Positions 2,890 through 14,431 of a DNA stretch of 54,503 bases are shown piece after piece. Below the pieces are notes generated by a model that saw only the letters and a list, made by a program, of their open reading frames with translations, ran no database searches and was not told where the DNA came from. Numbering within the stretch: position 1 is the stretch's first letter; each line of letters opens with the position of its first letter. The position numbers and the translations under genes are program-made. The DNA comes from a virus (Duplodnaviria > Caudoviricetes). The stretch covers positions 1 to 54,503 of IMG/VR virus record IMGVR_UViG_3300031957_001318; one strand, given 5' to 3'.

Positions 2890-3673
2890 AAGCGCTCACA
2901 TCCATTGATACAGACATCAAAACCCCGCCTTCTTCATACGTTGGCGACAACTCACCCCCACGCTCTGGACGCCAGCAATATCCCATGTCTTCCGGCATGA
3001 AGTCAGGGTTACCCGCATAAAAGAATGTTCTGCCAGAATTATAGTGATCCTCAAAAACGGCCATGTCGTTATCCACAAAGTCACGTTCCAGCAATCCAAA
3101 ATCAATCGTCGTTTCAGCACCAATACGCTTAATCCGGTTGCCAAGGAATTGCCCGCCAATACTGGTAGAGTTTAGCAGTTCAATCTTCTTGCCGTGATTG
3201 ATGGACAGGTGCCCAGAAATAACACCGCCGTCAATAACCAACCGCCTGCCAAGCTTAATGACACCAATGGATGCAGGCCCGTTGAAAATGTTAAACCGCC
3301 AATACCTAGAGAACGTAAGCGGAAACAGAACAATGATCGTATCATCTGTTAGCGGGCTAAGGAAAACACCAATGGCGGTGTATGTAACCCCGTCCGTCGA
3401 TGTTTGAAGCGTGAAATTAGCCCCCTGCGTTGCCATGTCGTGCGCGGCTATGCACAAGCAATCCGCACCGGCTGAAAAACCACGGTCTACCGTGATGCTA
3501 GCAGATGCAACAGCGGGCGTCCAGAAGTCAAAGGTCGTGTCCTCAATCGCATTAGCGCCTTGGCCGTCACTCGTTTCGCTTGAAACAGTAATAGTCCCAT
3601 CTTCGAACAAGTTACTATACAGCAGCATCGGCTTATCTGTGTCGGTCGCGCCGGATTTGATTTCCATTGTCAT
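2876..3673 (-). CDS. Distal tail-like structural protein
   Basis: Directly downstream of the tape measure gene; beta-sandwich-like RYWRF motif. Confidence 0.6.
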   Translation of the reverse strand: MTMEIKSGATDTDKPMLLYSNLFEDGTITVSSETSDGQGANAIEDTTFDFWTPAVASASITVDRGFSAGADCLCIAAHDMATQGANFTLQTSTDGVTYTAIGVFLSPLTDDTIIVLFPLTFSRYWRFNIFNGPASIGVIKLGRRLVIDGGVISGHLSINHGKKIELLNSTSIGGQFLGNRIKRIGAETTIDFGLLERDFVDNDMAVFEDHYNSGRTFFYAGNPDFMPEDMGYCWRPERGGELSPTYEEGGVLMSVSMDVSAYVEQ

Positions 3674-7873: not shown

Positions 7874-8770
7874 ATGACACAGTTTGTTAAGTACATGCAT
7901 CTTGAGCGTTTTGGCTCTGATGAAGTTGATGGCATTGAAGTGGGTAAAACTCTTGTGTTTCCGAAACTTGACGGCACCAATGCACAGGTTTGGCTGAATG
8001 AGGATGGCTCTATCGGATGCGGTTCGCGGAACCGTGTTCTGTCCGTTGATGCTGACAACGCCGGGTTTATGAATTGGGCGATTGATCAGCAGAATATCAA
8101 ACAGTACCTTACGTCGCATCCGAACCATACGCTTTACGGTGAATGGCTTGTCCCGCATAGTCTGAAAACGTACCGCGACGACGCTTGGCGTCGGTTCTAT
8201 GTGTTTGATGTTTTCGACCACGCGGACGGGCGGTTTATCCCGTATGACGATTACAAGGATGGCATCGAGCGGCATGGCCTTGACTTTGTAACGCCAATCG
8301 CCATCGTCAAAAACGGCAGCTTTGATAAGTACCTGCAATGCCTTGACCACAACACGTTTGCCATTAAGGACGGTGAAGGTATTGGCGAAGGTGTCGTTAT
8401 CAAGAACTACGACTTTGAAAACAAGTATGGCCGCGTCGTGTGGGCGAAGATCGTTACCACGGCATTCAAGGAAATGCACGTTGCGGCGATGGGCGCGGCT
8501 GAGATTGGCGGTCTTTGCGTCGAGGAAATCATTGTCAACGATTGCGTCACCAAGCATCTTGTCGATAAAACTCACGCCAAGATTGAAGCCCAAAATTTCG
8601 GCTGGAATAGCAAGATGATCCCGCAACTTCTCGGTATGGTCTGGCATGATCTTATCACCGAGGAAATTTGGGATATTCTGAAGAAACATAAGAACCCGCG
8701 TATTGACTTCCGTGCGTTGCAGCGGTTTTGCATTGCTAAGGTAAAAGAGCTAAGATCGGACTTGTTCTAA
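7874..8770 (+). CDS. ATP-dependent RNA ligase (Rnl2-like nucleotidyltransferase)
   Basis: Motif I KLDGTN, III YGEW, IIIa FYVFDV, IV GEGVVIK, V WAKIV; AGGAGG RBS. Confidence 0.85.
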   Translation: MTQFVKYMHLERFGSDEVDGIEVGKTLVFPKLDGTNAQVWLNEDGSIGCGSRNRVLSVDADNAGFMNWAIDQQNIKQYLTSHPNHTLYGEWLVPHSLKTYRDDAWRRFYVFDVFDHADGRFIPYDDYKDGIERHGLDFVTPIAIVKNGSFDKYLQCLDHNTFAIKDGEGIGEGVVIKNYDFENKYGRVVWAKIVTTAFKEMHVAAMGAAEIGGLCVEEIIVNDCVTKHLVDKTHAKIEAQNFGWNSKMIPQLLGMVWHDLITEEIWDILKKHKNPRIDFRALQRFCIAKVKELRSDLF

Positions 8771-8777
8771 TCTTACT

Positions 8778-8853
8778 TGCTGGGTAGCTCAGATGGTAGA
8801 GCGTCCGACTGTTAATCGGATGGTCGCGGGTTCGATCCCCGCCCCAGCAGCCA
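8778..8853 (+). tRNA. tRNA-Asn (GTT)
   Basis: Full cloverleaf: acceptor TGCTGGG/CCCAGCA, D-arm GCTC/GAGC, anticodon stem TCCGA/TCGGA with loop CTGTTAA, T-arm GGTTCGATCC, G73 and encoded CCA. Confidence 0.96.
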
Positions 8854-10382: not shown

Positions 10383-10417
10383 GGTGAACGTATAGCACAG
10401 AAAGCGTGGAGGCGCAA
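10353..10417. promoter_or_regulatory. Divergent promoter pair
   Basis: Plus: TTGACT-17-TAGGCA. Minus: TTGCGC-17-TATACG with extended TG, 6 nt from the ATG at 10382. Confidence 0.5.
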
Positions 10418-10423
10418 AGAGGA

Positions 10424-10594
10424 ATGGATATTAGCGAGTTGATTAAGGAAATTCAATTAGCAATGGATCGCGTTGGTGTAGAGCGTGATCGTATTGATGA
10501 CATTATCAGCAACGCAGAACAATTGCGCGATAACTGCCAAACTGCATATGATGACCTCTGGCATGCGCGCGATGCATTGTCGGAACTAGTCTAA
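10424..10594 (+). CDS. Small coiled-coil hypothetical protein (antisense cassette)
   Basis: GAGG RBS before ATG 10424; helical, acidic. Confidence 0.65.
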   Translation: MDISELIKEIQLAMDRVGVERDRIDDIISNAEQLRDNCQTAYDDLWHARDALSELV

Positions 10595-10622
10595 CCCAAC
10601 CAAACCGCCAAGGATGCAAAGA

Positions 10623-10922
10623 ATGACCAAATGGCAACCGATTGAAACAGCGCCGCATGGCAAAACATGCCTTATCTTCCTGAAAGATCAATACGGCCAT
10701 CAAAGAATTATCAAAGCAGAGTACTGCGATAAATTTTCTTGGGAAGCCTATTGTGAAAATTTCGAAGAAGAGTGGTGCGACTGGAATGAGGATGCAGGAT
10801 CGTATTACTACCCAGAAGGATGGTATGAAACATGCTGGTATCACAATGACATTTCAGGGATGAGAGTTACAGACACACCAACCCACTGGCAACCACTTCC
10901 CGAACCGCCTAGCGCACAATAA
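10623..10922 (+). CDS. DUF551-like phage protein
   Basis: WQPIETAP N-terminus and PTHWQPLPEPP C-terminus. Confidence 0.8.
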   Translation: MTKWQPIETAPHGKTCLIFLKDQYGHQRIIKAEYCDKFSWEAYCENFEEEWCDWNEDAGSYYYPEGWYETCWYHNDISGMRVTDTPTHWQPLPEPPSAQ

Positions 10923-11259
10923 ACACCGAGGCCACCGGCTCCCCAGCCCCTTTATAATTAATGATCCGCACGACAGACACAACGTCACCGTCGATGCGGA
11001 TCATGTCGTTATTTTCCATATCGACCACGCCTTGGCATAGCACTTGCCTATCGCTGGCAAGCACCGTAGTGCCGTCAACGTATTTTTGCGACACGCCGCT
11101 AACCACCGCGTCAATCCGCGTCCATGTCGTCGTGACGGTCGGAGGGTCCCATTCGTTCGCGCCAGCAACCGTGGTCGACACCCCGATCTCGACAACGCCT
11201 TGATTGTACTTTTCCAGTAGCCGTCCAGCCGTGCCTCGCATACGGTCATAGAGTGGCAT
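10909..11259 (-). CDS. Head closure / head-tail joining protein
   Basis: YDRMRGTAGRLLEKY and YVDGTTVLASDR motifs; AGGAG RBS before ATG 11259. Confidence 0.75.
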   Translation of the reverse strand: MPLYDRMRGTAGRLLEKYNQGVVEIGVSTTVAGANEWDPPTVTTTWTRIDAVVSGVSQKYVDGTTVLASDRQVLCQGVVDMENNDMIRIDGDVVSVVRIINYKGAGEPVASVFIVR

Positions 11260-11279
11260 AAAAAAATCTCCTAGGGGTG

Positions 11280-11310
11280 TTGACATGTGGTTTCGGGTGT
11301 GTCATATAGT
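11280..11310 (+). promoter_or_regulatory. Sigma70-like promoter for the leader and DIP1984-like gene
   Basis: TTGACA at 11280; CATATAGT at 11303-11310. Confidence 0.55.
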
Positions 11311-11341
11311 TTATCAGCTAAACGCAAGGAGACAAAACCAA

Positions 11342-11560
11342 TAGCAACCGCTCACCATGTGCGTCATCATGGTTTCGCAAAATGGAAGGTCGCCATACCT
11401 ACTGGCACAAGTCCGCAAGGGTAAAGTGTTAAGTGGTAAGTCTCAATTTGAGCAAGGTGATAGTTTCAATTGTGAAGAACGCAACTAAAATCTAGGCAAG
11501 TTGTTCGCCGTTGCTGCATGGTCAATCCTAGCTTCCCTTGTCGGGTTAGCTTTATTTTTA
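11342..11560 (+). ncRNA. Candidate structured leader/ncRNA with ~7-nt periodic AA(G) repeats
   Basis: Closing stem 11342-11351/11507-11516; hairpin ACCATG/CATGGT at 11354-11373; AA(G/T/C) or TAG units at 11409, 17, 24, 31, 38, 45, 54, 61, 68, 75, 83, 89, 98; no convincing ORF. Confidence 0.5.
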
Positions 11561-11573
11561 TCAGGAGGAAAGA

Positions 11574-12083
11574 ATGAAGATCGTAGAGGCTATGAAGAAA
11601 GTGAAAGACAATCGCCGCAAGATTGATGATCTTCGTCAGAAGATTGCCAAGAATGCTGCTCGTCTTTCTTACGAAACGTCTCAATATGATAATCCTGAGG
11701 CAAAGGTCAAGGAGTGGCTACAATCCTGCAATGATCTTTCAGTGCAATCCGTTGATCTTCTTGAACGTATCAATAAGACTAACATCAATACGATTGTTGA
11801 AATCGAGATTGGCGGCAAGTCTGTTTCTCGTTCCATTGCTGGCTGGATTTACCGCCGCCGTGAGTTTGCGGCGATTGATGCTGCAACTTGGAAAGCGTTG
11901 ACTGACAATGGCTTGAAAGATGGATTCGCAAAAACGGCATCAGGCGACCAGATGGAAGTTAAAGTCGTGCGTCACTTTAACCCTGAACAGCGAGACCGTA
12001 AGATTTCAGAGTTCTCAGAGGAACCATATTTGATTGATAGCCGACTAGAGGTCATCAACGCTATCACCGATCTCGCGGAATGA
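11574..12083 (+). CDS. DIP1984-like (septicolysin-annotated) helical coiled-coil protein
   Basis: AGGAGG RBS. The pattern MKIVEAMKK..IDDLRQKI, RINKTN, SIAGWIYRR, FNPEQRD..IDSRLEVINAIT matches my recollection of this family; HMM confirmation needed. Confidence 0.6.
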   Translation: MKIVEAMKKVKDNRRKIDDLRQKIAKNAARLSYETSQYDNPEAKVKEWLQSCNDLSVQSVDLLERINKTNINTIVEIEIGGKSVSRSIAGWIYRRREFAAIDAATWKALTDNGLKDGFAKTASGDQMEVKVVRHFNPEQRDRKISEFSEEPYLIDSRLEVINAITDLAE

Positions 12084-12086
12084 TTT

Positions 12087-12109
12087 AGGCCCCATTGGGG
12101 GCCTTTTTC
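12087..12109 (+). terminator. Rho-independent terminator, possibly bidirectional
   Basis: AGGCCCC-ATTG-GGGGCCT followed by TTTT, between convergent genes. Confidence 0.75.
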
Positions 12110-12635
12110 ACACCACCCGCGCATCAAACGAACGCACACCAGCAGTCCCGCGCACGAAACAGTCAATCCTGCGCATGGCAGCTTCAACACGGGTCTGCAT
12201 GGCCTCATACGATGCCGCATACCGGCTGGCATCATACCCCACTTGGATTTCCCCAACCTTCTCCATGGTGATTGCCGCATCTGCCAGACGGTACGAAGGC
12301 GACAGAACACCCGGCGCGCTAAGTTCTGCCCATGCCAAGTCATACTGAGCCGCGATAACCTCATCCGGGATTTCATCGTCGGCAATCGCGTTACCATCGC
12401 AATCTACCACGTCAGACCGAGGCCACGCACCAACCTGCGACCGGCCTAGTGTTCGTGCACCCTTCCACTTAAGCCCGTTCAGGTACGCAAACGCAGCCCG
12501 CATTGGTACATCCGAAGCGTCTTCATCTGCTACCGTACCGCCATAGTAATTCGCCACATGCAGAATGAAACCCGCTCGCGTTCCGTAGCTGTCTGCACCC
12601 GTAACGCCAGTGCCATTTTCAATTACCAACGCCAT
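12108..12635 (-). CDS. Head-tail adaptor (DnaT-like annotated family)
   Basis: MALVIENGTGVTGADSY, WKGAR...AWPR and IPDEVIAAQYDLA motifs. Confidence 0.8.
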   Translation of the reverse strand: MALVIENGTGVTGADSYGTRAGFILHVANYYGGTVADEDASDVPMRAAFAYLNGLKWKGARTLGRSQVGAWPRSDVVDCDGNAIADDEIPDEVIAAQYDLAWAELSAPGVLSPSYRLADAAITMEKVGEIQVGYDASRYAASYEAMQTRVEAAMRRIDCFVRGTAGVRSFDARVV

Positions 12636-14017: not shown

Positions 14018-14044
14018 TGTGGGGTGCAGCAAATGGAGGCAGGT

Positions 14045-14431
14045 ATGGCTGACTTGTATATCATTCGCGGCGTTCCCGGCAGCGGAAAGACTACGCTTGC
14101 GGAAAAGATGAACGATAGCGGGATGATTGACGTCTATTTTGAGGCGGACATGATGATGATTGATCATGACGGCAACTACAAGTTTGACCCGTCTAAATTG
14201 TCTTTCTGCCATGACCAGTGTCAGCGCGCCGTTGATGTTGCCTTGACTGTCGGCCACAACGTTGCTGTCTCAAACACGTTCACGCGGAAATGGGAAATGA
14301 AGCCTTATTTTGATATGGCGAAAAAACACGGCGCGCAAGTTACGGTGATTGTTTGTCAGGGTGACTTTTCCAATGTGCATGGCGTCCCGAATGGGAAGGT
14401 TCAGGCGATGCGCGACAGGTTTGAATACTGA
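14045..14431 (+). CDS. P-loop kinase, AAA_33 / polynucleotide-kinase (N4BP2-like) family
   Basis: LYIIRGVPGSGKTT, FEAD, VAVSNTFT..WE..PY and NVHGVP motifs; GGAGG RBS. Confidence 0.8.
   Translation: MADLYIIRGVPGSGKTTLAEKMNDSGMIDVYFEADMMMIDHDGNYKFDPSKLSFCHDQCQRAVDVALTVGHNVAVSNTFTRKWEMKPYFDMAKKHGAQVTVIVCQGDFSNVHGVPNGKVQAMRDRFEY

Follow-up and report, generated by a model that had tools for sequence, protein, structure and literature searches.

The 54,503-nucleotide (nt) stretch of DNA considered here, hereafter referred to as the window, corresponds to the IMG/VR virus record IMGVR_UViG_3300031957_001318, a complete 54.5-kb record of a virus of the Caudoviricetes that is bounded by direct terminal repeats. 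The virion operon on the minus strand of this marine phage is interrupted by a short cassette on the plus strand, located between the head closure gene Hc1 (10909-11286) and the head-tail adaptor gene Ad1 (12108-12635), with a G+C content of approximately 0.42 compared with approximately 0.57 in the flanks. The cassette is composed of two parts, a structured noncoding RNA of approximately 240 nt that carries an array of regularly spaced AAG triplets, and the gene of a 169-amino-acid (aa) protein with the DIP1984/DUF6847 fold. The RNA belongs to a family with covarying helices, a fixed register of AAG triplets and a near-obligate linkage to this gene, and it is this pair, together with its probable mode of action, that is discussed in this article.

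All features of the cassette are located on the plus strand. A candidate sigma-70-type promoter, read from the sequence, is found at 11280-11310, with TTGACA at 11280-11285 and either TATAGT (11305-11310, 19-nt spacer) or CATATA (11303-11308, 17-nt spacer) as a weak -10 element, and the transcription start, approximately 7 nt past the candidate -10, would coincide with the first base of helix P1. The structured noncoding RNA extends from the 5' strand to the 3' strand of P1 (11316-11551), its boundaries being those of the covarying closing helix. The P1 5' strand AGCUAA (11316-11321) is the perfect complement of 11546-11551, and the P1 columns of the family are rich in compensatory changes. 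It is followed at 11323-11338 by the 5' strand of helix P1b together with a conserved 5' box (GGAGACAAAAC, 11328-11338), where P1b (11323-11332) pairs with 11534-11543 and includes an AAGGAG motif at 11326-11331. The 5' strand of helix P2 (11338-11351) consists of P2a (CCA, 11338-11340, pairing with 11519-11521) and P2b (11342-11351, pairing with 11507-11516). Next comes a variable domain (11354-11396) with two small hairpins at 11354-11373 and 11382-11396, the former closed by ACCATG (11354-11359) and CATGGT (11368-11373); in relatives this slot is occupied by a tRNA-like domain. The AAG array occupies 11409-11477, with sites R1-R5 starting at 11409, 11417, 11424, 11431 and 11438, a 16-nt gap, and sites R6 (11454), R7 (11461), R8 (11468) and R9 (11475). 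On the 3' side, stem S3 (11492-11531) is formed by CUAGG (11492-11496) and CCUAG (11527-11531), its loop holding the 3' strands of P2, and the segment 11530-11551 comprises the 3' box AGCUUCC (11530-11536), the P1b 3' strand (11534-11543) and the P1 3' strand (11546-11551). A segment containing a T-rich run (11552-11562) and the ribosome-binding site AGGAGG (11563-11568) then leads, at 11552-11573, to the ATG at 11574 of the protein gene (11574-12083), after which a terminator-like G+C stem-loop followed by a T-run, likewise read from the sequence, lies between the convergent genes at 12087-12108.

A first-pass annotation, made from the letters of the window, had pointed to the TTGACA, the noncoding stretch up to the ATG, the open reading frame (ORF), the terminator stem, the ACCATG/CATGGT hairpin and the AAGGAG, all of which are present where it had placed them. 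For the promoter and the terminator it was right as to the sequences themselves, yet a consensus promoter/terminator scan called neither candidate.

Relatives of the cassette were collected with a protein alignment as the query. Viral contigs contributed 80 loci, the highest-ranking of 101 that were confirmed, and a further 18 came from genome contigs; a single-protein query against the viral contigs gave no loci. The RNA was represented by R1, a covariance model of its 3' 173 positions that is distinct from array site R1, and the 5' helices were tested on MAFFT alignments. Model R1 has a single match in the window, at 11404-11551 (E 1.4e-12), and nhmmer profiles match only 11408-11462 and 11474-11552. 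As a single sequence, the window RNA folds modestly better than its shuffles (z -1.85), so that the structural support comes from the relatives. The RNAalifold consensus of 16 full-length members contains a long closing helix, in which P1 joins both ends of the RNA, as well as the 3' stem S3, and it leaves the array unpaired. In P1b, the conserved 5' box of the family consensus, GGAGAYAAAAAC, faces the 3' box GGCUUCC. Sixteen sequences show no variation in the A-run or in the G, A, G and A of the 5' box, GCTTCC of the 3' box is invariant in 32 sequences, and alignment columns 20-29 covary with columns 362-370. Paired cells amount to 89.8%, compared with 33-52% when the partners are slid, and changes on both sides occur in 25 of 30 pairs; for S3, the figure is 9 of 11 pairs. 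The covariation score of 0.629 exceeds the 0.13-0.19 of the slid controls and is matched by none of 500 shuffles. Covarying stems around the repeat tract, which the first-pass annotation had proposed to look for, are present in the relatives.

Many of these pairs switch between A-U and G-U, which fits the plus strand only, and because the frequent G-U pairs suit that strand alone, the constraint acts on the transcript. The same observation bears on the possibility that the element works at the level of DNA, the heptads being iterons or centromere sites for a DNA-binding protein. Partition and replication sites typically have direct repeats alongside a gene whose product is a small, dimeric, helical protein, and the repeats here do adjoin such a gene; however, the flanks of the array show strand-specific covariation of the RNA type with many G-U pairs, the array itself is strand-specific and purine-rich, the element always has the orientation of the gene, and a spacing of 7-8 bp is out of step with the helical repeat of DNA. 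This explanation is the least probable of those considered here.

Helix P2 is of particular relevance to the architecture of the RNA. The stem between 11342-11351 and 11507-11516 noticed in the first pass, in which 9 of 10 pairs form, is homologous to this covarying family helix. In P2a, 81% of cells are paired compared with 26-46% after sliding, and the covariation score is reached by none of 500 shuffles, but for the two measures based on counts of pairs and of pair types, 157 and 175 of the 500 shuffles attain the observed values. P2 duplexes of cognate strands have a mean of -10.0 kcal/mol compared with -6.7 kcal/mol for non-cognate ones, and in 10 of 16 members the cognate partner is among the top two, two rows being shortened by alignment gaps. 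Since the 3' strand of P2 lies inside the loop of S3, the two helices would cross as a pseudoknot, a topology inferred from the order of the strands. The location of AAGGAG within the conserved 5' box, where it is paired with the 3' box, argues against its being a relic ribosome-binding site, and the earlier idea that it marks a displaced gene accordingly finds no support. Downstream of the closing helix, a T-rich run is found in 24 of 46 unique members, compared with 25% of random places; intrinsic termination at the closing helix was considered as a family rule and rejected, as just these 24 members have the run.

The AAG array is the second conserved characteristic of the family. Seven of the nine AAGs are intact in the window, R7 being UAG and R8 AAU; the relative L024 is fuller and has all nine. 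A run of four spacings of 7 or 8 nt, as found here, occurs in none of 5000 dinucleotide shuffles, so the heptad periodicity reported in the first pass is beyond chance, and neither strand of the 54.5-kb window contains a second run of three or more successive 7/8-nt AAG spacings. The first-pass count of about 13 repeats is too high: the periodic array is real, but the family has nine positions, and the last three of the proposed heptads fall in the paired S3 region. Tandem Repeats Finder returned nothing at a score of at least 30 between 11200 and 11650, since conservation is confined to three or four letters of each unit.

Among relatives, the spacing between AAGs is 7 or 8 nt in 287 of 475 cases (64 unique arrays), with secondary peaks at 14-16 and 21-22 nt and flat profiles in control regions, and the mean number of AAGs per array is 8.4, whereas 253 control regions from these loci contain 2.5 on average. 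The consensus of the unit is K-Y-A-A-G-G-N-U, with the fourth G present in 54% of units. When 79 unique members were aligned to the model, a position-specific register of nine sites emerged, with successive spacings of 7, 7, 7, 8, 16, 8, 7 and 8 nt found in 76, 69, 70, 69, 53, 55, 77 and 47 of the 79 members, respectively. The AAG heptads expected in the flanks of homologues are therefore not only conserved there but also fixed in position. The 16-nt gap carries a degenerate CAA/CAG at its midpoint, and the array may therefore have ten sites.

The most distant relatives show which part of the RNA is retained with the gene. In all eight distant loci examined (L091-L095 and L097-L099, with protein identities of 27-32%), four to five plus four AAG heptads are arranged around a structured spacer just 3' of the gene, the rest of the RNA is unrecognisable, and model R1 finds little or nothing. 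Because array and gene persist together at this level of identity, it is the array, out of the whole RNA, that remains coupled to the protein. Heptads of this kind also occur elsewhere: at least three phage loci (L244, L305 and L288) have approximately 6-11 AAGG heptads with the DIP1984-like gene absent. In L244 (3920-4080 and 4570-4700) and L305 (approximately 8560-8700, minus strand), the array is followed by a short turn and its own reverse complement, composed of CCTT heptads, which would make a long hairpin built of heptads; in L288 (10930-11010), a heptad array is present with no complement seen.

The linkage between RNA and gene is close in both directions. Model R1 produces 92 matches in 91 of the 98 loci, every one of them beside the gene and on its strand; of the seven loci with no match, L079 ends 106 nt past the gene and L092-L097 are the most distant relatives. 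Starting from the RNA, pattern scans gave, among the matches listed, 14 strong R1 matches, seven of which are on contigs already known; among the seven new contigs, six carry the gene next to the RNA and the seventh is truncated by the end of the contig; all 13 informative strong matches thus have the gene. Both DNA pattern scans consisted mostly of chance hits: in the first, 73 of 80 listed loci had no R1 match, and in the second, 7 of the 78 loci listed had strong matches and a further seven had weak ones (20-28 bits), none of the weak ones having the gene. The next recurrent gene cluster, after two clusters of antisense shadow ORFs, is found in at most 6 of 94 loci. The proposal of a protein-noncoding RNA module is borne out by this linkage in 91 of 98 loci with no other conserved neighbour.

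The order of the two parts is free, the RNA preceding the gene in 16 loci and following it in 75, and this freedom was already apparent from a blastn search of the window leader against the loci, in which the repeat tract was matched upstream of the gene in L059 and downstream in L027, L074, L024 and L028. Such flips fit a trans-acting pair better than a leader. In the first-pass annotation, the RNA was regarded as a leader, possibly an autoregulatory attenuator, and the corresponding explanation is that the protein controls read-through into its gene by binding to the repeats of the 5' untranslated region. The window and 16 related loci do have the RNA between a promoter-like site and the gene, and the closing helix is separated from the ribosome-binding site by a T-rich run. 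Nevertheless, a leader role is not a trait of the family when the RNA lies 3' of the gene in 75 of 91 loci, and attenuation is difficult to reconcile with an RNA whose 5' and 3' ends pair with each other to close it, which nests tRNA-like domains and which is followed by the T-run in only about half of the unique members, as counted above. We therefore give this explanation little probability, although feedback could exist as a secondary effect in the subclade with the RNA upstream.

The protein encoded at 11574-12083 matches the Pfam family PF20935 (DUF6847) over residues 12-167 (E 1.1e-7, 32.4 bits against a gathering score of 27), the sole Pfam family at E ≤0.1, in agreement with the DIP1984-like identity assigned in the first pass. 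Its score against NCBIfam NF038048 (DIP1984_fam), 43 bits, is below the cut-off of 70. Canonical DUF6847 proteins have approximately 150 aa and scores of 150-180 bits, and members of the phage branch have approximately 169 aa; judged by these scores, the 169-aa protein is a distant branch and not a standard member of the family. Relatives of the protein number 18 in 90% clusters, and among 1.84 billion representatives of 50% clusters there are 316 at E ≤0.001 and 161 at E ≤1e-10. Sequence searches of the PDB, with the single protein and with a profile of 91 sequences, gave chance-level rows only, and the ESM Atlas gave viral and bacterial hypothetical proteins only. Deinococcus radiodurans is the one control genome with a DUF6847 match, and in annotations of Acinetobacter plasmids DUF6847 proteins are labelled 'septicolysin'.

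An AlphaFold2 model built from 91 sequences (pLDDT 96.2) consists of four long helices together with two beta hairpins. Among solved structures, a clear relationship is seen only with 3KDQ, an uncharacterised protein of C. diphtheriae, with a VIA-align Z of 12.8 over 149 of 152 residues (rmsd 7.0), compared with a Z of 9.0 for the runner-up, which shares one helical hairpin only; Foldseek gives E 2.6e-4 and TM 0.57-0.63 for the same entry, and 3KDQ itself matches a canonical DUF6847 member at E 1.9e-31. When modelled as four copies, the protein is predicted to self-associate, with a score of 0.76 against 0.00 for the best control, contacts agreeing to at least 93% across runs and a partner pLDDT of at least 88. 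In the calibration, this mark was reached by 20 of 30 solved pairs and 1 of 23 solved single chains, counts that hold only roughly here because four copies and a custom alignment were used. The residues at the interface are identical on both copies, which indicates a two-fold dimer in the model and lends no support to the protein ring suggested in the first pass. The existence of 3KDQ, with four chains in its entry, means that the pass may come from likeness to a solved structure. The conserved polar residues K2, K8, T69, N70, D155, E159, N162 and T165 are candidate binding-site residues.

With the protein described, another explanation can be weighed, that of a type III-like toxin-antitoxin or addiction pair in which the repeat RNA neutralises a toxic protein. 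In ToxIN, tandem RNA repeats of approximately 34-36 nt precede the gene of an endoribonuclease toxin, and the order of promoter, repeat RNA, T-run and gene in the window resembles that layout; moreover, the module is a self-contained mobile cassette in varied contexts, sometimes beside HNH endonucleases. However, its sites are 7-8 nt apart within a large folded RNA that has no tandem units of approximately 36 nt, its protein has the fold of 3KDQ and matches no endoribonuclease or toxin family in Pfam, the PADLOC matches are weak and inconsistent with none credible, and the gene comes first in most loci. An addiction pair is consequently improbable, to about the same extent as the leader.

In many members, the RNA also carries a tRNA-like domain. 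In 41 of 81 unique members, ARAGORN identifies a tRNA-like structure in the variable slot, which follows P2 and precedes the array; the window has none there. Separately from these 41 structures of normal order, a permuted order (T arm, closed acceptor stem, D arm) was recognised by eye and with a simple pattern in at least 9 of the 81 unique members. Against such permuted members, the Rfam YrlA model (RF02553) scores 37.5 bits in L074 and 30.1 bits in L002, covering the tRNA-like part only and compared with a gathering score of 69. The first position of the anticodon is A in eight nested domains, five have anticodon loops of abnormal size, and seven of the eight with 'Ser' anticodons are on bodies of just 71-76 nt. 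This suggests that many of the nested domains are structural mimics rather than decoding tRNAs. In L004, L028, L035, L046, L055, L064, L082 and L090, among others, the anticodon is one uncommon in bacteria (AAT, ACT, ATT or AGG) or the loop is of odd size. A tRNA-island setting of the module was considered and rejected, a further tRNA being present within 4 kb in only 15 of 83 unique loci. In L067, the regions 1892-2231 and 3519-3602, located upstream of the module, include a group I intron match (45.9 bits, gathering score 50) that adjoins a tRNA and fragments matching the tmRNA model.

On this basis, the cassette is best regarded, with fair but limited confidence, as a self-contained pair of a structured noncoding RNA and a DIP1984-fold protein that act as a ribonucleoprotein, copies of the protein reading the AAG array. 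A direct partnership is favoured because the linkage is near-obligate, the gene order is free, no other neighbour is conserved and the array is kept with distant proteins, and the fixed and regular register argues for a regular reader in multiple copies. Binding itself, as well as its stoichiometry and geometry, is inferred from this pattern. In the proposed mechanism, a compact RNA core, with its ends paired in the long closing helix (P1 and P1b) that bears the two conserved boxes, and with P2 crossing S3, would present an optional tRNA-like domain, absent in the window phage, and a single-stranded array of nine AAGs. Several copies of the protein, approximately 8 to 10 protomers or 4 to 5 dimers, would each take one AAG, and the array, acting as a ruler, would determine how large the particle becomes. 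By analogy with TRAP, one repeat per copy of the protein is the best reading of the array. As the dimer is symmetric and a turn or hairpin separates the array into two halves, dimers may span both halves, which would run antiparallel. The tRNA mimics in many members further suggest that the particle engages a host factor that handles tRNA. A more specific version, a ladder of dimers on the nine-site ruler of a pseudoknotted scaffold, with the tRNA mimic, or in minimal forms like that of the window the lysine-codon-like array, acting as a decoy or trap for a host tRNA-handling factor such as a tRNA-cleaving defence nuclease, is speculative and should be considered doubtful; it would fit the RNA ligase, the spare tRNA and the polynucleotide-kinase-like gene that the phage itself carries.

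Several observations weigh against a ribonucleoprotein of this kind. The second half-array is degenerate in the window, where two of its four sites are intact. The structural model is a dimer with no sign of a ring or filament, the protein is near neutral (pI 7.8, net charge +1, the same as the family median), and family-library searches find no known RNA-binding domain in it. Canonical bacterial DUF6847 genes (L222-L225, from Pseudomonadota) have neither an AAG array nor an R1 match in any of the four loci, so that RNA binding is not a property of the whole fold family; the RNA partnership is a trait of the 169-aa phage branch only. The AAGG heptad arrays in loci that lack the gene imply that such arrays can have other readers or roles. 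Finally, the public runs containing the stretch are seawater metagenome DNA from one study, with no RNA run listed.

Part of this evidence is shared by the most serious rival, namely that the array is read by a non-partner. According to this explanation, RNA and protein cooperate, but the reader of the array is a host protein, the ribosome, the anticodon loop of a tRNA or another such factor, and the DIP1984-fold protein binds elsewhere, for instance at the closing helix with its boxes, or acts on the RNA or on the tRNA-like domain. AAG encodes lysine, the linkage data speak for functional coupling rather than for contact with the array, the closing helix has invariant boxes and bulges that resemble a protein site, the protein is not basic, and AAGG heptad arrays are found elsewhere in loci with no such gene. 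On the other hand, the distant relatives lose the recognisable boxes and the 3' domain and keep the array with the gene, which makes the array the partner-specific part, and the fixed register argues for a regular oligomeric reader. We regard a non-partner reader as unlikely, but far less so than the leader or the addiction pair, and retain the view that copies of the protein read the array.

The surroundings of the module vary from locus to locus. It occurs in at least 100 uncultivated phages and in metagenome-assembled contigs labelled with many bacterial phyla and one archaeon; GenBank phages gave no match by blastn with the cassette or by tblastn with the protein, and plasmids gave none by tblastn. 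In ten sampled loci, the flanking genes are diverse, including those of HNH endonucleases, methyltransferases, ribonucleotide reductase, portal and tail fibre proteins, and others. Beside the module in L016 (20-3910), a 1297-aa ORF with portal-protein matches has HNH and homing-endonuclease matches in its middle, which may represent an intein or an inserted endonuclease. In the window, an RNA ligase gene (7874-8770, plus strand; PF09414, E 3e-21) is directly followed by tRNA-Asn(GTT) at 8778-8853, and a gene for an AAA_33/zeta-toxin-like kinase (14024-14431, plus strand) forms a further insert in the minus-strand virion operon; ligase, tRNA-Asn and kinase resemble a T4-style tRNA repair kit. 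The link to RNA repair proposed in the first-pass annotation holds to the extent that these genes are present in the phage. As a conserved link it was rejected, since the 4-kb surroundings of the module contain no ligase or kinase homologue in any of the other 98 loci; the link is local and no trait of the family. Another small plus-strand insert, at 10406-10922 between the head morphogenesis gene and Hc1, contains a 62-aa ORF and a 102-aa ORF, the latter with a weak match to DUF551 (E 6e-4, just under the cut-off).

No description of such an RNA module and no function for DUF6847/DIP1984 were found in the literature covered, which leaves out most subscription journals; in that literature, DIP1984 occurs merely as a name. 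At the gathering threshold, Rfam 15 identifies only the tRNA-Asn in the whole window, and at E ≤10 it gives no match between 11200 and 11650; in six related loci it gives only tRNAs, tmRNA-like fragments, the group I intron and sub-threshold YrlA matches. If the favoured reading is correct, the module would represent a structured RNA class absent from all sources searched, with a dedicated protein partner, and would provide the first functional lead for the DIP1984/DUF6847 fold, the structure of which was solved in 2009 with no function assigned. It would also add a new mode of RNA reading, through a fixed register of AAG triplets approximately 7.5 nt apart, and extend tRNA mimicry by phage RNAs beyond the Y RNAs. 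As the pair is small and self-contained, direct reconstitution and structure determination are feasible.

Among known systems, TRAP offers an analogy for the proposed reading of the array. It is a beta-sheet ring acting in cis on the trp leader of Bacillus, where approximately 11 (G/U)AG triplets lie about 5 nt apart (2-3-nt spacers), one per subunit, and in the favoured reading an oligomer would likewise read many spaced purine-rich triplets on single-stranded RNA. The module differs in having AAG at intervals of 7-8 nt, nine sites, a helical dimer of the 3KDQ fold and a closed RNA that is mostly 3' of the gene, and the 169-aa protein has no Pfam match to the TRAP family. HutP, a hexameric antiterminator acting in cis on hut mRNA, recognises UAG triplets with 4-nt spacers, i.e., a 7-nt period, three per set in two sets joined by a linker, which is comparable to the 5 + 4 half-arrays of the module; in contrast, the triplet here is AAG, the fold of the protein is unrelated and there is no Pfam match to HutP. 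The sponge RNAs CsrB and RsmZ present GGA in hairpin loops at irregular spacing and titrate CsrA dimers, and they are not encoded beside the gene of the protein. They share with the module many copies of a short motif on one RNA and a symmetric homodimer as partner, putative in the present case, whereas motif, spacing, protein fold and role are different, and the module RNA adjoins its protein gene.

The Y RNAs are similar in another respect. YrlA and the Y RNAs that partner Ro60 are described (PMC4201824) as modular noncoding RNAs, encoded beside the protein partner, also in phages, with paired ends, and the tRNA mimic of YrlA has its elements arranged as T arm, closed acceptor stem and D arm. 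The RNA of the present module is likewise modular, adjacent to a protein gene and closed by its ends, with a tRNA mimic of apparently permuted order in some members. Nevertheless, not all members have the tRNA-like domain, the window copy being one that lacks it, the AAG array has no counterpart in Y RNAs, the scores against YrlA are far under 69 bits, and Ro60/TROVE (PF05731) was not found in the complete 54.5-kb phage by a search that detected it in control genomes. GOLLD and ROOL are described (10.1101/2024.12.08.627333) as ornate, pseudoknotted RNAs of phages that form RNA-only cages of 500-800 nt or longer, can contain tRNAs, and have no conserved protein partner and no known function. 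They invite the alternative that the module is a self-assembling RNA of this type, with the protein as an accessory or chaperone: it is phage-borne and pseudoknotted, and some of its members nest tRNAs, as the same source reports for the linker regions of GOLLD. The near-absolute linkage to a protein, in contrast to GOLLD and ROOL, the much smaller size of the RNA and the absence of any match to the Rfam models of ROOL and GOLLD make this alternative, too, quite improbable. Compared in this way with TRAP, YrlA, type III toxin-antitoxin systems and GOLLD/ROOL, and falling outside each of them, the RNA of the cassette is apparently a new class with a new protein partner.

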